Below, piece after piece: positions 6,127-27,478 of a stretch of 33,990 nt of DNA (position 1 is its first letter; the number at the start of each line of letters is the position of its first letter). The DNA is from an uncultured Atopobiaceae bacterium (lineage in GTDB: Bacteria > Actinomycetota > Coriobacteriia > Coriobacteriales > Atopobiaceae), in the NCBI GenBank assembly GCA_947303905.1, contig CAMYZR010000001.1, positions 1 through 33,990 on the forward strand, in the 5' to 3' direction. The notes beneath the pieces were generated by a model. That model was given only the letters and a program-made list of their open reading frames with translations. It ran no database searches and had not been told where the DNA came from. Both the position numbers and the translations under genes were made by a program.

Positions 6127-6181
6127 GACGGGTCGCGTTGCCTGCGGTTATGGCCACGGGCGACGCGACCCGTCCTTTTTT
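6127..6181 (+). terminator. Rho-independent terminator of cysK
   Basis: A 12-bp perfect stem, GACGGGTCGCGT (6127-6138) / ACGCGACCCGTC (6163-6174), is followed by a T6 run (6176-6181). Confidence 0.8.
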
Positions 6182-6332
6182 GCCTCGATCTTCCGCGCAC
6201 CTCAAACGAGTCGCCGCATCCCCTCAAACCACCGACAAAGCGCATCGGGCTGCTGGTGGAGCCTCGGCTAACTTATCGCGTCTTGTCATCTATGATGGGG
6301 ACGTGCCTTCGCACGCACCACAATCACGTACG

Positions 6333-8390
6333 ATGGGGGTCCCCGTGGACGCAAACTCTCGCAGCATCCTTGGCCTGATCGCCGAAATGAACACGCGCTT
6401 TGTCGTACCGGTCTACCAGCGTCCCTACTCGTGGGGCGAGCAGCAGTGCCTCCAGCTGTGGGACGACATCCTGGCCTGCGGCAGGCAGCGGGAGAACTTC
6501 CACTTCACCGGCTCGATCGTGACCATCCAGGACGGGAGCATGTCCGAGCAGGGTGTGACGCCGCTTCTGCTCATCGATGGCCAGCAGCGCATCACCACCA
6601 TCACGCTTCTGCTGATCGCCCTTGCTCGCCTCGTCGACAAGGAGCAGACCGACCTGCCCTTCACGCGCGAGGAGATCGTGGACTCGGGCTATCTCACCAA
6701 CCATTTCCGGACGGGGGCCGACCACTACAAGCTCACGCTCTCCAAGACCGACCAGCCGGCACTGCGCTCGCTCATCGACAACCTCGAGGACCCTGCGGTG
6801 CCGGTGGAGACCACCTCCGAGCGCCTCATGGAGAACCTCGCCTTCTTCGAGCGGCGCGTGGAGGCGCTCAGCGACATCGCATCGGTCTGGGCGGGCCTGC
6901 AGCGCCTGGAGGTCGTCTCCATCGCGCTCTCGCAGGGCCAGGACAACCCGCAGGCCATCTTCGAGTCGATGAACTCCACCGGCAAGGACCTCTCCTCGGC
7001 CGACCTCATCCGCAACTTCGTCCTCATGGCCTATCCCGTGGCGGAGCAGTACGACATGTACCAGACCTACTGGCGTCCCATCGAGCAGATCCTGGGCGCC
7101 GATGCCTACGGCGGGACCTTTGACGACTTCATTCGCAGCTACTTCACCGTTGCCTACGCGCCCGAGTCGATGGCCAAGGCTGACGTGTACCAGACCTTCA
7201 AGCGCTATGTGCTGTTCAATGGCTACCACCGCAACGACCGCATGAAGAACCTCTCGCTCAAGGTCAAGCGCTTTGCCGGCTACTACGCGCGCGTGACCAC
7301 CGGCGAGGTGGACGACGCGGAGGTGGCCGAGGTGCTGCACCGGCTGTCGCTGCTCGACATGCCGGTGATAAACCCGCTGCTTCTGGCGCTGTTTGACAGC
7401 TACGACCACAAAGCGCTGTCGCGCGAGGAGTTCTTGGACATGGTGGCGACCATCGAGAGCTACCTCTTGCGCCGGGCGGTCTGCGACTGCGAGACGAGCG
7501 TGCTGTCGCCGTTCGTCGCCTCGCTGATAGCCCGCCTCGATGCCGTGCGCAGCGAGGGCGGCAACGTGGCCGAGGCACTGCAGGCGATGCTGCTCAACGA
7601 GGCGGGCACCCCCAGGCGCTTCCCGACCGACGCTGAGTTCGGCCGTGCGCTCGCCACGCGCGACTGCTTCGGGTTCTCGCGCGTGTTCTACCTGCTGGCG
7701 CGCCTCGAGGGTGGCATGGGAGGCTGCTGCCTGCCACGCAAGGGCAGCTGGACGGTCGAGCACGTGATGCCCGTCCATGCCGTGAGCGACGAGGGCTGGG
7801 CCGAGGTGCTCGGTCCGGACGCCGAGCGCGCCTTCGAGGAGACGGTCAACAGCCTGGGCAACCTCACCCTGACGACCTGCCTCTTCGATCTGCAGGACGC
7901 AAGCTTCGCCGACAAGCGCGAGCGCGTGCTAGGGGCGCAGGGAGATGCCCGCTTGGCCATCTCGCAGGCCATCGTCGAGGCAGAGACGTGGGGCCCCGAG
8001 CAGATTCGTACGCGCACGCAGGAGCTGGTGGACGAGGCACTCGGCCTTTGGACCATTCCCGACCTGCCTGAGGAGGCCTGTCGGGCCTATCGTCCGTCCC
8101 GTCGCGCTGCGGCAGGGGAGCAGGCGAGCTTCTCCGACCTCTTCGAGGCCGGCCTCGTGGAGATGGATGACGTGCTGGCCAGCGCGAACCCGCTCTACCC
8201 GGGCAAGGCCACCGTCACCTCGCGCGGCAAGATCATGCTCGCCAACGGCGAGATGTTCGACGACCCGACCGAGGCGTACGAGCGCTTCCTCGCCATGCAG
8301 GGAGCGCTGGTGACCGGCCTCAACGGCTGGATGTACTGGCGTCGCGGCGAGGGCGGGCCGCTGCTCGACACGCTGCGCGAAGGCCTCTAG
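6333..8390 (+). CDS. GmrSD-like DUF262 (ParB-like NTPase) / DUF1524 (His-Me finger nuclease) protein with a C-terminal RAMA-like domain; probable type IV (modification-dependent) restriction or other defence nuclease
   Basis: DUF262 motifs: VPVYQRPYSW and LLIDGQQRITTITLLL. DUF1524 motifs: WTVEHVMPVH...VNSLGNLTLTT...ASFADKRE. The last ~100 aa (FSDLFEAGLV...GKATVTSRGKIMLANGEMFDDPTEAY...LNGWMYWR) resemble the RAMA domain. The start is ambiguous: ATG 6333 has no SD, and in-frame GTG 6345 is preceded by GGGGG. A possible -10 TATGAT lies at 6290-6295. Confidence 0.8.
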   Translation: MGVPVDANSRSILGLIAEMNTRFVVPVYQRPYSWGEQQCLQLWDDILACGRQRENFHFTGSIVTIQDGSMSEQGVTPLLLIDGQQRITTITLLLIALARLVDKEQTDLPFTREEIVDSGYLTNHFRTGADHYKLTLSKTDQPALRSLIDNLEDPAVPVETTSERLMENLAFFERRVEALSDIASVWAGLQRLEVVSIALSQGQDNPQAIFESMNSTGKDLSSADLIRNFVLMAYPVAEQYDMYQTYWRPIEQILGADAYGGTFDDFIRSYFTVAYAPESMAKADVYQTFKRYVLFNGYHRNDRMKNLSLKVKRFAGYYARVTTGEVDDAEVAEVLHRLSLLDMPVINPLLLALFDSYDHKALSREEFLDMVATIESYLLRRAVCDCETSVLSPFVASLIARLDAVRSEGGNVAEALQAMLLNEAGTPRRFPTDAEFGRALATRDCFGFSRVFYLLARLEGGMGGCCLPRKGSWTVEHVMPVHAVSDEGWAEVLGPDAERAFEETVNSLGNLTLTTCLFDLQDASFADKRERVLGAQGDARLAISQAIVEAETWGPEQIRTRTQELVDEALGLWTIPDLPEEACRAYRPSRRAAAGEQASFSDLFEAGLVEMDDVLASANPLYPGKATVTSRGKIMLANGEMFDDPTEAYERFLAMQGALVTGLNGWMYWRRGEGGPLLDTLREGL

Positions 8391-13337: not shown

Positions 13338-13844
13338 ATGGCTGCCGATGCCTCCTCCATCTTTAACAAACAGGCGGTGGAACGCCTGCGCAGTCCCGAT
13401 GACCTTGACCGATATCTGAGGGCGACCACCCCTGGCGTGTGGATGGTGCTGTTTGCCGTCTTCGTCCTGACCGTGGGCCTCCTGGCCTGGGGCGTGTTCG
13501 GGTCGGTCTCCGCGAGCGTCTCGACGACCGGCGCAAGCATCAACGGCGTGGTGTACTGCATGCTTGACGGTGACCAGGTTGCCCAGGTGCACGAGGGCGA
13601 CCCCGCCTACGTCGACAGCCAGCAGGCGCATGTGGCACGGGTGAGCAAGGTCCCCCTGTCAGTTGCCGAGGCAAAGGGCGTGCTTTCCAGCGACTATCTC
13701 GTGGAGGCGCTCATGCCTGGCGAGTGGGGCTATCTGGTCGTACTCGATGGCGCCTCCTTGGAGGGGGAGGGCATACCCGTGACAGTGAGCATCACTACCG
13801 CACGCATCGCGCCGATCTCTCTCGTCTTGGGAGGCACGCAGTGA
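13338..13844 (+). CDS. Short HlyD-like 'NHLM/NHLP bacteriocin system secretion protein' (membrane-fusion-type adaptor lacking the coiled-coil hairpin)
   Basis: The N-terminus FNKQAVERLRSPDDLDRYLRATTPGVWMVLFAV matches the conserved start of the NHLP-system HlyD family (TIGR03794, as I recall). A single TM helix and a small beta-rich domain follow. The stop overlaps the next gene's start as GTGA. At 168 aa it is much shorter than the ~400 aa I associate with this family. Confidence 0.65.
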   Translation: MAADASSIFNKQAVERLRSPDDLDRYLRATTPGVWMVLFAVFVLTVGLLAWGVFGSVSASVSTTGASINGVVYCMLDGDQVAQVHEGDPAYVDSQQAHVARVSKVPLSVAEAKGVLSSDYLVEALMPGEWGYLVVLDGASLEGEGIPVTVSITTARIAPISLVLGGTQ

Positions 13845-16006
13845 GCAGGTTGCCCAAGGTCCCGCAGGTCATGCAGATGGAAGCCCTGGAGTGCGGAGCG
13901 GCCTGCCTGACCATGATCCTCGCCTACTATGGGCGCTGGGTCCCTCTCGAGCAGGTACGAGCAGACTGTGGCGTCTCGCGTGATGGCAGCAAGGCGAGCA
14001 ACGTCCTTGCGGCGGCGCGCAGCTACGGGCTGGCGGCGAAGGGCATGTCCTTCTCGGTGAGGGCCCTGACCAAGCGCTCGCCCTACCCCTGCATCATCTT
14101 CTGGAACTTTAATCACTTCGTGGTGCTGCGCGGCATAAAGGGCAAGTACGCCTACCTCAACGATCCGGCGCGCGGTCAGGTGCGGGTCCCCCTCGCCGAC
14201 TTCGAGAAGTCCTTCACGGGCATCGCGCTGGTCTTCGAGCCAACCGAGGCCTTCGAGAAGGGCGGCGAGGCTCCCTCGGGCTTCAAGTCCTCGCTGTCGT
14301 ATATCGCCGGTGCGGGGTCTGCCATTGCCTTTGTCATGGCGACCGCGGCCATCTCGTCGCTGTTGGGCATCTTCAACACCTCGCTCAGCCGCGTCTTCCT
14401 CGACCGTGTGCTCTCGGGGGACAATCCCGAGTGGCTCGTGCCTCTCACTGCGGTCATGGCCCTCATTGCCGTGCTCCTGACGATCGTCAACGTGCTCAAC
14501 GCGGTCTATCTGGTGAACATCCAGGGGAAGCTTGCCGTGGTGTCGTCCTCGCGCTTCATGCGCCACCTCCTGCACCTGCCGATGGGCTTCTACGCCCAGC
14601 GTATGGTGGGCGACCTCCAGCAGCGTCAGGCGGCAAACGAGACCATCGCCTTCTCGCTCATCGGACAGCTGGCGCCCGTGCTCATCAACTCGGTCATGCT
14701 ACTGCTCTACCTGGCCATCATGGTGCGCTACAGCCTGGTGCTCACGCTGGTTGGCATCGTCACGGTGGCACTCAACGCCTTGGTGGCACGCTACATCTCG
14801 AGCAAGCGCGTCAACGTCGCCCGTTCCGTCGTGACCGACTCGGGCAAGCTCTATGCCGTGACCGTCGCCGGGGTGGAGATGATCGAGACCATCAAGGCGG
14901 CAGGTGCCGAGAACGGCTACTTCCAGCGTTGGGCCGGCTATCAGGCAAACGTCACCGACGGCAGCGCGCGCATGACCGCCATCAACGAGTACCTTGGCGC
15001 GGTACCCACGGTTCTCTCGCAACTCGGCAACATCTCGGTGCTGCTGGTGGGCATCTGGCTCATCGTCGCGCGGGGATTCACGCCCGGTGCGCTTCTGGCC
15101 TTCCAGGGCTTCTTGGGGTCCTTCATGGCGCCGGTGACCCAGCTGATCGGGCTGGGGCAGACGGTGCAGGAGATGCAGACCCAGGTCGAGCGCGTCGAGG
15201 ACGTCATGCGCTACGAGAGCGACGTGCCCGAGGATTCGTCGGAGGAAGAGGAGATCGAGGCGGCGTCCGCCTTCGGTCGCGAGAAGCTGCGCGGTGCGGT
15301 GGACGTGAAGAAGGTCACCTTCGGCTACTCCCCGCTGGACAAGCCGCTCATCGAGGACTTCGACCTGCACCTCGAGCCGGGTCAGTGGGTTGCGCTCGTG
15401 GGTTCGTCAGGCTGTGGCAAGTCAACCATCGCCAAGCTCGTCTCGGGGCTCTACAAGCCATGGAGCGGGGAGGTCCGCTTCGACGGCACGCCGCTGGACG
15501 AGATTCCGCGCTCGGTGTTCCGCGGGTCGCTCGCCGTGGTCGACCAGGACATCGTCACCTTCGACGACACGGTGAGCCAGAACGTGAAGCTGTGGGACAA
15601 GTCCATCGAGGACTATGAGGTCATCATGGCCTGCCGCGATGCGGACGTCCATCAGGTCGTGGCCGAGCGCGAGGGTGGCTACGAGAGCCGCATCCTGCCC
15701 GGCGGCCGCAACTTCTCTGGCGGCCAGCTGCAACGCCTGGAGATCGCGCGCGTGCTGGCGCAGGATCCCACGGTCATCATCTTGGATGAGGCGACCAGCG
15801 CGCTTGACGCGCAGACCGAGGCGGAGGTCATCAGGCGGATTCGCAACCGCGAGATCACCTGCATCGTGGTGGCGCACCGCCTCTCGACCATTAGGGATTG
15901 CGACGAGATCATCGTGCTCGACCAAGGCAAGGTGTTGGAGCGCGGCACTCATGACGAGCTGCTGGCAAACGACGGTGCCTACGCCGAGCTTGTGAGGAGT
16001 GACTAG
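13841..16006 (+). CDS. Bacteriocin/peptide export ABC transporter with an N-terminal C39 peptidase domain (peptidase/permease/ATPase; NHLP-type ABC1)
   Basis: The C39 catalytic set is intact: QMEALECGAACL (Cys), NFNHFVVLRG (His), LNDPARG (Asp). A six-TM permease region follows. ATPase motifs: Walker A GSSGCGKST, signature FSGGQLQR, Walker B ILDEATSALD. The GTG start at 13841 follows SD GGGAGG. ATG 13871 is an alternative start. Confidence 0.88.
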   Translation: MSRLPKVPQVMQMEALECGAACLTMILAYYGRWVPLEQVRADCGVSRDGSKASNVLAAARSYGLAAKGMSFSVRALTKRSPYPCIIFWNFNHFVVLRGIKGKYAYLNDPARGQVRVPLADFEKSFTGIALVFEPTEAFEKGGEAPSGFKSSLSYIAGAGSAIAFVMATAAISSLLGIFNTSLSRVFLDRVLSGDNPEWLVPLTAVMALIAVLLTIVNVLNAVYLVNIQGKLAVVSSSRFMRHLLHLPMGFYAQRMVGDLQQRQAANETIAFSLIGQLAPVLINSVMLLLYLAIMVRYSLVLTLVGIVTVALNALVARYISSKRVNVARSVVTDSGKLYAVTVAGVEMIETIKAAGAENGYFQRWAGYQANVTDGSARMTAINEYLGAVPTVLSQLGNISVLLVGIWLIVARGFTPGALLAFQGFLGSFMAPVTQLIGLGQTVQEMQTQVERVEDVMRYESDVPEDSSEEEEIEAASAFGREKLRGAVDVKKVTFGYSPLDKPLIEDFDLHLEPGQWVALVGSSGCGKSTIAKLVSGLYKPWSGEVRFDGTPLDEIPRSVFRGSLAVVDQDIVTFDDTVSQNVKLWDKSIEDYEVIMACRDADVHQVVAEREGGYESRILPGGRNFSGGQLQRLEIARVLAQDPTVIILDEATSALDAQTEAEVIRRIRNREITCIVVAHRLSTIRDCDEIIVLDQGKVLERGTHDELLANDGAYAELVRSD

Positions 16007-16049
16007 GGGTCGGTCCTTGCGGACGGACCGCACCGAAGGGAAGGTGCGC

Positions 16050-18236
16050 ATGGCCTTTTTTGGGCTGAAATCGCAGATTGAGATGCGCAAGGAGCTCGAT
16101 GCCGACCTGCTTGAGCGCTCGTATGCGGAGCTTGCCGCAAGTGTGGGCGGCATGCGCAACTCGCCCAGCTTCAGGTCGGATGACCTCGAGCTGGTGGATG
16201 GTGCCGTGCGCACGTGCCTGCGCTACTGCGGGGTGACTCCTGGGACGGCTCCCGACAGCCTGACTGACCTCGAGGCGCGGATGGAATGGCTCTGCCGTCC
16301 CTCGGGCACCATGCACCGCTCGGTGCGACTCGATGGCGATTGGTATCACGATGCCTTTGGCGTCATGTTGGCGCGCCTCGACACGGGCGAGCCCATCGCG
16401 CTGCTTCCACACACGTCGGGTGGCTACTTCTATCACGATCCCACCACGGGGCGGCGCTGCAAGGTCAACGCGAGTGCGGCCTCCCACATCGAGCCCGATG
16501 CCACCTACTTCTATCGCGCGTTTCCGCTGGAGAAGCTGAGCGTCAACAGCCTCTTCCTCTACATCATGCGCGTGCTCGACCGCAGCGACTACCTCTTCGT
16601 CGTGGCGGTCGCGGCCGTCTCCACCCTGGTCGGCCTCCTGCCGGCCTGGGCGAACAACCTTGCCTTTGGTACGGTCGTGCCGAGCGGCCAGGCCAACCTC
16701 ATCGCCCCGATCGGCATGCTTCTGTTGGGCGTTGCCTTGTCGAGCACCCTGTTTGGCATCTCGCGCACCTTGGTGATGGGTCGCGTGTCCACCAAGCTCC
16801 GGACTGCGACCGAGGCGGCCACCTTCTCGCGCATCCTCTTGCTGCCGACCTCCTTCTTCAAGGAGTACGCGTCGGGCAACCTGGCGACCCGAGTCTCGCA
16901 GGTGACGACGCTCGTCGACCTGCTCACCTCGCTTGTGTTGGGCACCGGCCTCACGAGCGTGCTCTCGCTGGTGTACATCGGCCAGATCGCGCTGTATGCG
17001 CCTGTGCTTGCGGTGCCCGCGCTGGTGGTTGCGGTGCTGCAGGCGCTGCTCTCCGTCTTGGTGACGGTCATATCCGCCAAGCGGCAGCAACAGGCAGTGC
17101 AGGCGTCCACACGCCTCTCGGGTCTGGTGACGGCGCTTCTCAATGGCATCCAGAAGATCAAGCTTGCAGGAGCGGAGGACCGTGCCTTTTCCAAGTGGGC
17201 CCACGAGTACGCGGGCTTCGCCCGTGCCACCTACAATCGTCCCACCATCGAGCGCGCGCTGCCTGCCTTCATCTCGCTCATCAGCATGCTGGGCTCTATT
17301 GTCATCTTCTACCTCGCCGGAACCTCAGAGGTGAGCGTGGCCGACTACATGGCCTTTAGCGTGGCCTTTGGCCAAGTGACCGGTTCGCTCATGGCGCTTT
17401 CCGGCACCGTGAGCCAGATTGCCCAGATCGGGCCCACGCTCGATGTCGTCAGGCCCATCCTCGAGACGTTGCCCGAGATTGGGGAGGACAAGCCCAGCGT
17501 GGAGAGGCTCAGCGGGGCCATCTCGGTGTCGGGCGTGTCGTTCCGCTACGACGACAGGTCGCCTTACGTGCTCAGGGACCTCTCCTTCGACATCCGTCCG
17601 GGCGAGTACGTTGCCATCGTCGGCAAGAGCGGGTGTGGCAAGTCGACCATCGTCCGCCTGCTCTTGGGCTTCGAGAAGCCCGAGCGCGGGAGCATCTTCT
17701 ACGGTCGTTACGATGTCAGCAAGGTAGACCTCAGGAGCCTCAGACAGTCGATTGGCTCGGTTATGCAGGATGGCCGGCTCTTCTTGGGCGACATCTCGTC
17801 CAACATCACGATTGCGGCGCCGAGCGCGACGCTCGATGATGCATGGCGGGCGGCGGAGATCGCGGGAATCGCTGATGACATCCGCCAGATGCCGATGGGC
17901 ATGCAGACGATCCTGAGCGAGGGCTCGGGTGGCGTATCGGGCGGGCAGCGTCAGCGCATCATGATCGCGCGTGCCGTGTGTGGCGACCGCCGTATCCTCA
18001 TGCTTGACGAGGCGACGAGTGCCCTGGACAACATCACCCAGAAGCATGTGTCCGACTCCCTCGCGCAGCTCAAGTGCACGCGCGTGGTTGTGGCCCATCG
18101 CCTGTCGACCGTGCGTCATTGCGACCGCATCCTCGTGGTGGATGACGGGCACATCGCCGAAGAGGGCAGCTACGACGAGCTCATCGCCCGTGACGGCCTC
18201 TTTGCCGACCTGGTGAGGCGCCAGCGTCTGGAGTAG
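16050..18236 (+). CDS. Second peptide-export ABC transporter permease/ATPase with a degenerate, non-catalytic N-terminal domain (NHLP-type ABC2)
   Basis: The N-terminal ~170 aa lack the C39 Cys/His context. TM region follows. ATPase motifs: Walker A GKSGCGKST, signature VSGGQRQR, Walker B MLDEATSALD. The start is taken at M18 (16050), after GGGAAGG. Confidence 0.85.
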   Translation: MAFFGLKSQIEMRKELDADLLERSYAELAASVGGMRNSPSFRSDDLELVDGAVRTCLRYCGVTPGTAPDSLTDLEARMEWLCRPSGTMHRSVRLDGDWYHDAFGVMLARLDTGEPIALLPHTSGGYFYHDPTTGRRCKVNASAASHIEPDATYFYRAFPLEKLSVNSLFLYIMRVLDRSDYLFVVAVAAVSTLVGLLPAWANNLAFGTVVPSGQANLIAPIGMLLLGVALSSTLFGISRTLVMGRVSTKLRTATEAATFSRILLLPTSFFKEYASGNLATRVSQVTTLVDLLTSLVLGTGLTSVLSLVYIGQIALYAPVLAVPALVVAVLQALLSVLVTVISAKRQQQAVQASTRLSGLVTALLNGIQKIKLAGAEDRAFSKWAHEYAGFARATYNRPTIERALPAFISLISMLGSIVIFYLAGTSEVSVADYMAFSVAFGQVTGSLMALSGTVSQIAQIGPTLDVVRPILETLPEIGEDKPSVERLSGAISVSGVSFRYDDRSPYVLRDLSFDIRPGEYVAIVGKSGCGKSTIVRLLLGFEKPERGSIFYGRYDVSKVDLRSLRQSIGSVMQDGRLFLGDISSNITIAAPSATLDDAWRAAEIAGIADDIRQMPMGMQTILSEGSGGVSGGQRQRIMIARAVCGDRRILMLDEATSALDNITQKHVSDSLAQLKCTRVVVAHRLSTVRHCDRILVVDDGHIAEEGSYDELIARDGLFADLVRRQRLE

Positions 18237-18992: not shown

Positions 18993-19316
18993 AGGTGTTC
19001 CTCCTCTTTGTTGGCGCCATCAAGCTGTGATGGCTCCGTGCCCGTTTAGACGTCGAACTTAATACACAACTGCGGGCGTGTTGTCTCAAGATAGTCAGTT
19101 TTTTCTGAAAGCAGGATTGTTAATGGCTGATGGCAATTACTTTTGATTGGCCTTGGCGTGCCATTTGGACATTTCTCCTGCCTTTGTGGTACCAGATGCC
19201 CGACCGGCGGGAAAACTCTCGTCGAGTCGCATAAAATAGAGAAAAGTTTGAGACAGACTGCGAGCGCCGGCAGTACTAACGGGCAAAGAAAGAAACTCCG
19301 GCGTAAGGGGATGGAC

Positions 19317-19526
19317 ATGAACGACAAGATGATCGAGCGCGTACTGTCGAGAGACTATTCGGTTGGCAAGCAGGCCTTCAAGGAGAATCTCCTGCAGCGT
19401 TGCCTGGCCGAGCTGGATCAGGGTGATCAGGGGATGGAGCTTGCGGACGACGAGCTCGACATGCTGGCTGCGGCAGGCGTCCCCTTCCTGGATGAGAATC
19501 CGTTCAATCCGCTCAAGAGGCCGTAG
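19317..19526 (+). CDS. 69-aa candidate exported-peptide precursor with a double-glycine-type leader; predicted core (G)VPFLDENPFNPLKRP
   Basis: Sequence: MNDKMIERVLSRDYSVGKQAFKENLLQRCLAELDQGDQGMELADDELDMLAAAG-VPFLDENPFNPLKRP. The segment ELADDELDMLAAAG aligns to the GG-leader consensus (L-12, E-8, L-7, hydrophobic -4, small/small at -2/-1). SD AAGGGGA lies 6 nt before ATG 19317. A strong terminator lies 48 nt downstream. The longer track ORF (from 19143) has no SD support. Confidence 0.55.
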   Translation: MNDKMIERVLSRDYSVGKQAFKENLLQRCLAELDQGDQGMELADDELDMLAAAGVPFLDENPFNPLKRP

Positions 19527-19573: not shown

Positions 19574-19605
19574 GCGCCTCAGACCATGTGGTCTGAGGCG
19601 CTTTT
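19574..19605. terminator. Intrinsic terminator between the convergent peptide gene and the phosphatase gene
   Basis: A perfect 13-bp palindromic stem, GCGCCTCAGACCA (19574-19586) / TGGTCTGAGGCGC (19589-19601), is followed by TTTT (19602-19605). AAA precedes the stem, giving a weak U-tract for the opposite strand. Confidence 0.8.
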
Positions 19606-19630
19606 CTGTTGCCCGATGTGGGTGAGCCCG

Positions 19631-22378: not shown

Positions 22379-22681
22379 CTAGCTGACGATGGTCATGACC
22401 TCGGAGAGTCCCGTCATCTCAAACACCTCGGTGACTTCGGCAGTCGGGTGGAGCAGACGGATCGAGCCACCGCGCTGCATAGCGAGCTTCTGGGTGCTGA
22501 CCAGCACGCGCAGGCCAGCGGAGGAGATGTACTCGAGCTCGGAGAGATCGATGTCAAAGTTGACCGCGCCCGTGCCAAGCTGACGTACGGCATCCTCGAG
22601 CTCGGGACTCGTGGCGACGGTGAGCTTGCCCTTGACCGCAATGGCGCCCGTGTTGCCGTCAAGATTGGTGGTGATGTCCAT
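22379..22681 (-). CDS. STAS-domain anti-sigma-factor antagonist (RsbV/SpoIIAA-like)
   Basis: The protein is 100 aa. It carries the conserved phosphorylatable-serine context DLSELEYISSAGLRVL, and VTEVFEMTGLSEV at the C-terminus. SD AAGGAG lies 6 nt before the ATG. Confidence 0.85.
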   Translation of the reverse strand: MDITTNLDGNTGAIAVKGKLTVATSPELEDAVRQLGTGAVNFDIDLSELEYISSAGLRVLVSTQKLAMQRGGSIRLLHPTAEVTEVFEMTGLSEVMTIVS

Positions 22682-26542: not shown

Positions 26543-27478
26543 CTACTGGATACCAGCCTGGTGCGTAGCGAGCCACTCGGCTGCCTTGTGCGCAAAGTAG
26601 CAGGTGCCACCCTCGCTTTTGGCCTGCTCGTAGTACGGGCGGGCAGCCGCGTCATCGCCCTTGAGCACCTCGAGCTCGGCCCGACGGAAGGCGACACTCG
26701 TTTGCTGCTCGGGCAGCTTTGCCAGCCCGGTGAGCCTGTCGAGCAGCTCCTCGGCCGCCTGCAGGTCGCCGTCGGCAACGGCGAGCGCCTCGTCGGTAAA
26801 GAGCAGCGCCATCTCGGCGCCCTCCCTAAGGGGCCCGCGCGACTTGCGCAGGGATGCGGCAAGATCGTCGCGCAGGCTTCTCACCTGCGGCCAGTCCTTC
26901 TCGATCGTGGCGAAGCCGATGCCGACGTTGTCGACCATCGGCCTCATGGCACCGGAGGGCTTGGCGGTGGCCGTGGCCACGTTCAGCAGCTCGCGCGACT
27001 TCTCGACGTCACCCGTGAGCATGGCCGCCTGGGACGCGATGAGCATATGCTGTGCTTTGGCGCGACGATTCTTGATGCGGCCAAGGAGATGGTCTTCCAC
27101 CTTGAGCATCTTGGCGGGGTCGCAGTCGTGGGTCACGATGCCCTGGAAATCGGCGTATGAGCGGATGATGAACAGGTATTCGAGGGCAACGCATGCCACG
27201 ACGATGGGGATGGCGAACAGGAGCCTTGTCCAGTCGGCCTCCCCGAGGACATACGGCCAGCAGGCGACGAGCGTGAGGCCGGCGGCCAAGGCGGCGCCAG
27301 CGCAGCGAATGAGCAGGTCGCGGTTCTTGAACTTGATGGCGCACTCGTACGGCCTGAGATTGGCGAAGGACGAGTGTCGCGTGGTGTCGCCAGTCTGCAT
27401 AGGCGCATGACCTCCAAGGACGTCTCCCATACCTCGCCATATGATACTCGCGTCAAACGAATGTGTCTCGCCATGCAT
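26543..27478 (-). CDS. Hypothetical membrane protein with a helical-repeat (TPR-like) C-terminal region
   Basis: Two TM helices (LLIRCAGAALAAGLTLVACW; LLFAIPIVVACVALEYLFII) precede Ala/Leu/Glu-rich helical repeats. The start is uncertain: 27478, 27430 or 27400. Confidence 0.45.
   Translation of the reverse strand: MHGETHSFDASIIWRGMGDVLGGHAPMQTGDTTRHSSFANLRPYECAIKFKNRDLLIRCAGAALAAGLTLVACWPYVLGEADWTRLLFAIPIVVACVALEYLFIIRSYADFQGIVTHDCDPAKMLKVEDHLLGRIKNRRAKAQHMLIASQAAMLTGDVEKSRELLNVATATAKPSGAMRPMVDNVGIGFATIEKDWPQVRSLRDDLAASLRKSRGPLREGAEMALLFTDEALAVADGDLQAAEELLDRLTGLAKLPEQQTSVAFRRAELEVLKGDDAAARPYYEQAKSEGGTCYFAHKAAEWLATHQAGIQ

Follow-up and report, generated by a model that had tools for sequence, protein, structure and literature searches.

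The peptide exporter recognised by the models TIGR03796 and TIGR03797 has been linked to NHLP and Nif11 precursors, with further precursor families predicted for it, and in Eggerthella lenta the exporter has Nif11 peptides beside it (Haft et al. 2010, PMC2887384). The present analysis concerns a gene for a protein of 69 amino acids near an exporter of this type in a 33,990-nucleotide stretch of DNA from an uncultured Atopobiaceae bacterium (contig CAMYZR010000001.1, assembly GCA_947303905.1), referred to below as the window. Judged from leader motif, gene order and promoter, the product is probably the precursor of a short and likely unmodified exported peptide, processed by a peptidase-containing ATP-binding cassette (ABC) transporter (PCAT) within the regulon of an extracytoplasmic function (ECF) sigma factor. 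It belongs to an unnamed family, widespread in gut and rumen Coriobacteriia, whose members are apparently precursors of short secreted peptides that are cut and exported by the neighbouring transporter.

Compared with the Nif11/NHLP system (TIGR03794/03796/03797), the exporter is of the same type, its peptidase-bearing protein (ABC1) scoring above the TIGR03796 cutoff, and the precursor likewise has a long leader (about 53 amino acids), conservation that ends at the cleavage motif and a hypervariable core. The logo is also the same over the 13 residues before the site, and Nif11 peptides co-occur with family members in two of the compared loci (L032 and L028). The family differs in that PF07862, TIGR03798 and TIGR03793 do not match it, the likeness seen with hhalign is limited to the 15 to 20 residues before the site, Ala-Ala stands for Gly-Gly, the cores are acidic and poor in Cys, no tailoring enzymes lie nearby and the HlyD-like partner protein is truncated, having about 168 amino acids.

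The streptococcal ComC (competence-stimulating peptide) and BlpC systems, with their exporters ComAB and BlpAB, share with this locus a short unmodified precursor (here predicted), a double-glycine (GG)-type leader and a dedicated C39 ABC exporter. In both, the precursor gene adjoins a regulator, here often lying just upstream of it, the mature part is hypervariable as in pherotypes, and bacteriocin-like GG peptides and small membrane proteins stand behind the same promoter. The regulators differ: instead of a histidine kinase and response regulator, the conserved neighbours here are an ECF sigma factor, a STAS protein and a SpoIIE/HATPase_c_2 protein, that is, a switch of STAS, PP2C phosphatase and anti-sigma-kinase type. 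The leader is also twice as long, the site is AA and not GG, the taxon is Coriobacteriia, and the predicted mature peptides are acidic and Pro-rich whereas the streptococcal ones are cationic and hydrophobic.

Among actinomycetes, the lantibiotic clusters for microbisporicin (MibX/MibW) and planosporicin (PspX/PspW) are peptide-export loci under a dedicated ECF sigma factor with feed-forward logic; their products are lanthipeptides, and they carry LanB/C enzymes and a membrane anti-sigma factor. An actinobacterial peptide-export locus with a dedicated ECF sigma factor is common to these clusters and to the present one, which instead lacks modification enzymes, has an exporter of PCAT type and carries a partner-switching module. 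No description of a PCAT or GG-peptide locus coupled to an ECF sigma factor and a partner switch was found in the literature.

The gene and its protein family

The translation of the open reading frame (ORF) is identical to that given in an earlier note on this DNA, which had been made from the sequence without database searches. A second in-frame ATG at 19311 (MDM...) would add Met-Asp; the ortholog in locus L007 has ACG at this position, and ATG 19317 is thus the conserved start. A longer ORF from TTG 19143 was rejected because the conserved promoter lies downstream of that codon. Both the ribosome-binding site and the strong terminator described before were found again (Table 1). The terminator hairpin (19574-19601) with its T-tract gave a centroid energy of -30.3 kcal/mol and z = -6.6, equalled by 0 of 200 shuffles; a simple terminator scanner did not list this hairpin, and the terminator was confirmed by folding instead. 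A scan of the entire window against Rfam produced no match.

Purifying selection, which had been named beforehand as a test, acts on leader and tail alike. Between the window and L006, the leader showed 17.5 synonymous and 3.5 nonsynonymous differences over 54 codons, a ratio of nonsynonymous to synonymous divergence (pN/pS) of about 0.06, and the first 9 tail codons showed 4 synonymous differences and 1 nonsynonymous difference. Between the window and L007, the tail DNA (19476-19502) differed at 5 of 27 nucleotides and the leader at 2 of 162 (Fisher P = 7e-4), and the L007 tail lacks three codons (NPL) present in the window. This divergence suggests allele turnover or recombination restricted to the mature-peptide region, a pattern that resembles the turnover of pherotype alleles. 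The ORF is a real gene.

A first protein search returned 3 clusters and a profile search 43, while an exhaustive HMMER scan of 1.84 billion representatives returned at least 273 clusters (counted at 50% identity) with E <= 1e-3, among them 196 with E <= 1e-10. All 273 members have 60 to 140 amino acids. A metagenome scan gave at least 9 loci with the family pattern. All named members came from Coriobacteriia, the sources being metagenome-assembled genomes of Coriobacteriales, Coriobacteriaceae, Eggerthellaceae and Atopobiaceae, and were labelled just "hypothetical protein". The window protein itself is present under that label as GenBank AHF26027.1 from an uncultured rumen bacterium, so the gene had not been missed by annotation, as the note had supposed, nor is it an orphan.

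Pfam and NCBIfam scans of the window protein and the 43 members gave sub-threshold matches only, to the plantaricin C family (E = 0.008) and to an NHLP-clan model (E = 0.046). None of the 43 members matched Nif11 (PF07862) or TIGR03798 at E <= 10, and none matched TIGR03793 (NHLP) above cutoff; as a positive control, the Nif11 peptide encoded beside the family member in L032 scored 34.5 bits on TIGR03798 (cutoff 32.3). A profile search against PDB sequences found no related structure, only chance matches to light-harvesting proteins. No published description of the family was found in literature searches by motif and for ECF sigma factors together with double-glycine, Nif11 or Coriobacteriia.

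Leader, tail and predicted cleavage site

In an alignment of 261 distinct sequences, about 53 N-terminal residues were conserved, with the consensus M.E...R.L..DFS.GTE.FRD.LL.RCL.VL......EL.DDELDMLAAAG. Counted from a cut after the third Ala (LAAA/G, the slash marking the cut), position -12 was L, I or V in 258 of the 261, -10 was D in 247, -8 was E or D in 200, -7 was L in 248, -4 was L in 249 and -3 was A or S in 258. Position -2 was A in all 261, -1 was A in 255 and G in 6, and +1 was G in 255. Similarity collapsed after LAAA/G into a hypervariable tail of 8 to 47 residues (median 17). Pro made up 10.7% of the tails and 0.9% of the leaders; the mean net charge of the tails was -2, with 212 of 261 net negative. 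Cys amounted to 0.6% and was absent from 236 tails. Only weak recurrent motifs were seen in the tails, an initial G-[DN]-P-[FY] and, in a subset, [LF]GDN. The statement that the core is free of Cys, Ser and Thr thus holds for this allele and not for the family, in which only 33 of the 261 tails lack all three.

Double-glycine leaders are marked by hydrophobic positions -4, -7 and -12, an acidic -8 and a small -3, and here these features come with D-10 and an invariant Ala-Ala replacing Gly-Gly. The L-12, E-8, L-7 and L-4 assignment that the note had made for a cut after AAA was correct, and the conservation of this motif among homologs, for which it had proposed a check, is evident from the counts above. 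Within the 34-kb window, a six-frame search found 19317-19526 to be the sole ORF with a GG-type leader motif near its C-terminus. The rules drawn up for ComA and LahT comprise Leu-12, Glu-8 and Leu-7, and a two-turn helix that sinks its hydrophobic residues -4, -7 and -12 into the C39 groove; for LahT, Ala is found at -3 "almost invariably". In the 13-residue logo shared by NHLP, Nif11 and class II leaders, positions 1, 4 and 6 are acidic, 2 and 7 are Leu, 10 is Val or Leu and 12-13 are GG (Haft et al. 2010, PMC2887384). The AAA/G register agrees with this logo and with the LahT rules.

Alignment with hhalign placed the family motif ELxDDELDMLAAAG on VELSDEQLEAISGGG, LELGDDVLEAIAGG and VELSDEDLDSITGG, canonical leaders encoded beside family members, and set Ala-Ala on Gly-Gly (LAAA/G on ISGG/G). 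The rare variants with Gly at -1 or a residue other than Gly at +1 are consistent with the same register. A cut after Gly54 instead would yield the 15-residue peptide VPFLDENPFNPLKRP and leave an Ala-Gly pair, which is likewise non-canonical. The calculated [M+2H]2+ values are 920.491 for GVPFLDENPFNPLKRP and 891.981 for VPFLDENPFNPLKRP.

An AlphaFold2 model built from 149 sequences showed helices at 5-13, 21-37 and 46-55 (71-residue numbering) and no compact fold, with a predicted template modelling score (pTM) of 0.34 and low confidence over the tail. The predicted helix 46-55 covers -10 to -1 with a predicted local distance difference test score of about 80-85, as would be expected of a recognition helix, and a helix predicted over -4 to -11 counts in favour of a processed precursor. 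Sites listed in reviews for C39 peptidases are GG, GA or GS only; with Ala-Ala at -2/-1 and no match to the Nif11 and NHLP models, the family is therefore a new leader family and a member of neither, which by its motif behaves as a double-glycine leader substrate.

Three other kinds of protein were considered and rejected. A Sec signal peptide with an AxA signal-peptidase site did not fit the segment before AAA, which is acidic and amphipathic and has no hydrophobic core. A Pup-like or ubiquitin-like modifier was set aside on the missing C-terminal GGQ/GGE and the variable tail length, and a lanthipeptide, thiopeptide or sactipeptide precursor on the Cys-poor tails and the lack of tailoring enzymes conserved nearby.

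Exporter and gene contexts

The window encodes a short HlyD-like protein, ABC1 (C39 peptidase, permease and ATPase) and ABC2 (permease and ATPase without peptidase domain), as listed in Table 1. The C39 exporter described in the note is thus there, with ABC1 above the TIGR03796 cutoff and its catalytic Gln/Cys/His/Asp motifs intact (QMEALECGAAC, NHFVVL, NDP). The mechanical ORF of ABC1, taken from GTG 13724, has 120 nucleotides in common with the upstream gene. The Pfam C39 match runs from residue 46, the C39 domain being placed at about residues 45-190; the true start is probably near 13841-13871, judged from the sequence around ...VPQVMQMEALECG. All related loci keep the short HlyD-like form (138 to 171 amino acids) beside the ABC pair; it has the appearance of an adaptor that is truncated in these Gram-positive bacteria. 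The window has no gene for a tailoring enzyme, be it of lanthipeptide, YcaO, radical SAM or another type.

The 32 loci compared (L labels) represent about 17 independent gene orders. In 10 of these the small gene adjoined orthologs of the three exporter genes (47-92% identity), the arrangement for which the note had proposed a search, namely homologous small ORFs beside NHLP-type exporters; the linked transporter is a C39 ABC transporter with the catalytic Cys and His. Exporter contexts were the window type (window, L004, L006 and L007), L008/L022, L012/L013, L026, L028 and L030. Further orders were ECF sigma, short HlyD, ABC1, ABC2 and peptide as an operon on one strand in L018; ABC1, ABC2, STAS and peptide in L021; peptide and short HlyD in L024; and a single-strand operon of peptide, ECF sigma, short HlyD, ABC1 and ABC2 in L031.

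Canonical GG or Nif11 peptides were present in three contexts. In L028 three small genes stand in tandem directly upstream of the exporter; the third is the family member, and the other two encode peptides with canonical ...ETIVGG and ...EAIAGG leaders. One canonical GG peptide of L028 has 87 amino acids. A canonical GG peptide gene is divergent from the family member in L031, and a bona fide Nif11 peptide gene likewise in L032.

Promoter, sigma factor and partner switch

The sequence TGAGAC-N17/18-GTAyyAA was found 35 to 75 nucleotides upstream of the small gene across lineages, including unrelated loci. The window holds 2 exact copies of the motif against 0.45 expected, one before the small gene and one, divergent, before the gene of a 215-amino-acid membrane protein. 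In 14 loci that had not been used in building the matrix (2 x 137.8 kb), 12 matches scored at least 17, of which 8 lay directly upstream of family members or adjacent canonical GG-peptide genes (binomial P about 1e-15). The GG and Nif11 peptides of L028, L031 and L032 share the promoter form TGAGAC-N18-GTATAxA. The motif resembles ECF promoters such as that of SigW (TGAAAC-N16-CGTA), and its spacing exceeds that of sigma-70 promoters. A sigma-70 promoter scan around the peptide gene gave no match; the scanner used had likewise failed to list the obvious terminator.

Orthologs of the ECF sigma factor (41-99% identity) were encoded near family members in 14 of about 17 contexts, making it the most constant neighbour, and in 9 lineages its gene lies immediately downstream of the small gene. 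Judging by this adjacency, the co-located sigma factor presumably reads the TGAGAC-N17/18-GTAyyAA promoter. The genes for the sigma factor, the STAS anti-sigma-factor antagonist and an 898-amino-acid membrane protein form one operon in the window, convergent on the small gene, while in L021, L026 and L030 the partner-switch genes are embedded in the exporter operon. The 898-amino-acid protein has a multi-transmembrane N-terminal region, a possible extracytoplasmic segment, a HAMP-like linker, a SpoIIE domain and a HATPase_c_2 domain of the anti-sigma-kinase type. An ECF sigma factor under an RsbU/RsbW/RsbV-type partner switch is unusual. The link to the ECF sigma factor, which is tighter than that to the exporter, the partner switch and the conserved ECF-type promoter were all absent from the earlier note.

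The 215-amino-acid polytopic protein shares 58-77% identity between loci whose flanking genes share 86-94%, and it may serve as immunity protein, as receptor or in some other way. A weaker copy of the ECF-type promoter was seen in the window (score 15.2) and in L006 (score 20.5), the window copy lying at the 5' end of the gene for a TPR-like protein of 311 amino acids, which may be a further member of the regulon.

Table 1. Positions of the small gene, its signals and the surrounding or related features; positions refer to the window unless a locus is named
Feature	Position	Strand	Remarks
Small ORF, 69 amino acids	19317-19526	+	Translation MNDKMIERVLSRDYSVGKQAFKENLLQRCLAELDQGDQGMELADDELDMLAAAGVPFLDENPFNPLKRP, then stop
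Leader, residues 1-53	19317-19475	+	Two N-terminal helices and predicted recognition helix ELADDELDMLAAA; from alignment/logo, AlphaFold2 and hhalign
Predicted released peptide, 16 amino acids, with stop codon	19476-19526	+	GVPFLDENPFNPLKRP; conservation stops at boundary; low model confidence
ECF-type promoter	19249-19279	+	TGAGAC-N18-GTACTAA; about 38 nucleotides before start codon of peptide gene
Ribosome-binding site	19305-19310	+	AAGGGG, 6 nucleotides before ATG 19317; read from sequence; kept in L006 and L007
Intrinsic terminator	19574-19609	+	G+C-rich hairpin of 12-14 bp, then TTTTCTGT; by folding
Divergent ECF-type promoter	19059-19088	-	TGAGAC-N17-GTATTAA; 5' of 215-amino-acid membrane protein gene; also in L006 and L007
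Polytopic membrane protein, 215 amino acids	18345-18992	-	Matches no known family; own ECF-type promoter
Short HlyD-like accessory protein, 168 amino acids	13338-13844	+	TIGR03794 match over positions 1-51 of 421 only
ABC1	13724-16006	+	TIGR03796 924.9 bits (cutoff 853.3); Peptidase_C39 E = 1.8e-34
ABC2	15999-18236	+	TIGR03797 706.1 bits (cutoff 709.4)
ECF sigma factor, 176 amino acids	22702-23232	-	Sigma70_r2 and r4_2, TIGR02937
STAS anti-sigma-factor antagonist	22379-22681	-	Orthologs in L012, L014, L021, L026, L028 and L030
Membrane protein, 898 amino acids	19631-22327	-	SpoIIE (PP2C) phosphatase and HATPase_c_2 domain; orthologs in L014, L026, L028 and L030
Canonical GG/Nif11 leader peptides	L028 8891-9769		Cargos of 20-65 amino acids
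Canonical GG/Nif11 leader peptides	L031 5090-5380	-	Cargos of 20-65 amino acids
Canonical GG/Nif11 leader peptides	L032 766-966	-	Cargos of 20-65 amino acids
Weaker ECF-type promoter copy	27441-27473	-	
Weaker ECF-type promoter copy	L006 18057-18089	-	
TPR-like protein, 311 amino acids	26543-27478	-	
GAF/ABC ATPase set	L028 17313-19769		
GAF/ABC ATPase set	L029 2168-3751		
Opp-type oligopeptide importer	L017 2056-7522		
GmrSD-type restriction endonuclease	6138-8390	+	

Proposed function and alternatives

The claim of the earlier note that the adjacent C39 exporter has this leader-bearing protein as its substrate is supported by the leader that ends at LAAA/G, the linkage in 10 of about 17 contexts, the tandem arrangement in L028, the hhalign register and the lack of a modification enzyme. 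Transcription of the precursor gene would start at the ECF-type promoter, read by the co-located sigma factor, whose activity would be set by the membrane-anchored partner switch of STAS protein, PP2C phosphatase and anti-sigma kinase. The C39 domain of ABC1 would then dock L-12, L-7 and L-4 of the amphipathic helix ELADDELDMLAAA, an Ala-Ala variant of the double-glycine leader, and cut after Ala53 or, less likely, after Gly54, and the exporter of ABC1, ABC2 and short HlyD-like protein would release the unmodified 16-mer GVPFLDENPFNPLKRP outside the cell.

The released peptide would most plausibly act as the inducing pheromone of a peptide-secretion regulon in which the ECF sigma factor and partner switch replace a two-component system. 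Taken by itself, this role as pheromone or inducer is tentative, falling somewhat short of an even chance; it is favoured because the logic of the locus parallels that of the streptococcal com and blp loci. The earlier proposal of a linear secreted signal, as opposed to a classical bacteriocin, is likewise supported as probable. It is possible, though rather doubtful, that peptide and exporter form the input arm of a quorum-sensing-like circuit through the ECF sigma factor, in either of two versions. In the first, the released peptide would be sensed by the 898-amino-acid PP2C/anti-sigma-kinase protein, whereupon the STAS protein would be switched and the sigma factor freed. In the second and more radical one, the uncleaved precursor would hold the sigma factor until capture or cleavage by the PCAT releases it, as in a FlgM-like checkpoint. 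Either version, if true, would be an architecture of which peptide pheromones offer no described example, and one specific to Coriobacteriia of gut and rumen.

Several observations weigh against an exported, PCAT-processed peptide within an ECF regulon. The main weakness is the non-canonical site: Gly-Gly, Gly-Ala or Gly-Ser is absent from -2/-1, the Ala at P2 is invariant, and no example of C39 cleavage at Ala-Ala was found in the literature consulted. The N-terminal 40 conserved residues, among them a nearly invariant Cys, go beyond the needs of C39 recognition, and modification enzymes cannot account for them because none lie nearby. Acidic, Pro-rich tails set the family apart from known GG pheromones, and no receptor for the peptide was identified. 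No exporter was found within the available sequence of L001, L009, L014, L017, L029 and L032. The sigma operon and the exporter operon of the window do not carry the promoter motif, and it is by adjacency only that the promoter is assigned to this sigma factor.

An exported effector in place of a signal was also considered, namely an unmodified antimicrobial or competition peptide with the 215-amino-acid protein as its immunity protein, or a peptide made by the ribosome and modified after translation (RiPP) with unlinked tailoring enzymes. The exporter and promoter are common to the family and to bacteriocin-like GG and Nif11 peptides, a co-regulated and fast-evolving polytopic membrane protein adjoins the gene, and L014, L028, L030 and L031 have radical SAM genes no more than a few kb away. 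This proximity is weak evidence, such genes being abundant in anaerobes, and no tailoring enzyme is conserved across contexts or present in the window. With a median of 17 residues, acidic (212 of 261), Pro-rich and non-amphipathic, the tails are unlike pore-forming class II bacteriocins, and 236 of 261 have no Cys. The family member is moreover constant in the loci while the bacteriocin-like peptides vary, and an inducer therefore fits better than an effector, which is considered unlikely.

A cytoplasmic regulator, that is, a small anti-sigma factor or adaptor that binds the ECF sigma factor by its two N-terminal helices, is a slightly poorer candidate still; the GG-like helix would be incidental or would couple the protein to the exporter. 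In one version, similar to FlgM, inhibition would be relieved through capture, cleavage or export by the PCAT. The constancy of the sigma factor (14 of about 17 contexts) and the position of the small gene directly upstream of the sigma gene in 9 lineages, as in a sigma/anti-sigma order, point this way, as does the lack of any other anti-sigma candidate and of an exporter within the available sequence of L001, L009 and L017. So do the conserved N-terminal 40 residues and the nearly invariant Cys, which C39 recognition alone does not explain. Against a regulator it counts that PCATs export the part C-terminal to the cut, so that the conserved N-terminal part would remain inside. A processed precursor is also what the sequences look like, conservation breaking off sharply at a cleavage motif of exporter type and giving way to a hypervariable tail. 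No anti-sigma domain (zf-HC2, RskA and similar), zinc motif or PDB relative was detected, and the model consists of isolated helices (pTM 0.34). The exporter is present with no sigma gene in the available flanks of L024 and L028, and the partner-switch loci already encode an anti-sigma-type HATPase_c_2 domain.

A chance or non-functional frame between genes, which the small size and the lack of a Pfam or NCBIfam match might suggest, is already refuted by conservation, given the 273 homologous clusters, the pN/pS of about 0.06 and the conserved promoter, ribosome-binding site and terminator.

An exported peptide, if confirmed, would extend the substrates of the TIGR03796/03797 exporter beyond NHLP and Nif11 leaders, and the motif suggests that an Ala-Ala site may also be open to C39 peptidases, with consequences for genome-mining rules that demand GG, GA or GS. 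Coriobacteriia, for example Eggerthellaceae and Atopobiaceae, are common gut and rumen bacteria in which cell-cell communication is essentially uncharted, and the family offers a testable handle on it with a predicted secreted peptide, an exporter, a promoter motif and a dedicated sigma factor with partner-switch input. Should the signalling role hold, the peptide-pheromone circuit would run by way of an ECF sigma factor in place of a two-component or RRNPP system, a wiring that may be new to bacterial peptide signalling.

Other genes near family members

Some further genes were recorded in the flanks (Table 1). In L028 and L029, a protein of about 100 amino acids is followed by a 406-amino-acid protein with GAF and ABC ATPase domains near the family members; the smaller protein is a STAS protein by Pfam in L028 and has no Pfam match in L029, and L028 adds an FtsX/MacB-type permease. 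These loci are unrelated, and the set may be another recurrent module. In L017, a complete Opp-type oligopeptide importer (SBP_bac_5, two permeases and two ATPases) lies 2.5 kb upstream of the family member, with no exporter nearby, which could be a coincidence or a route for re-import of the peptide. The window also contains a defence gene, a GmrSD-type (DUF262/DUF1524 with RAMA) restriction endonuclease, with 81% identity in L014.

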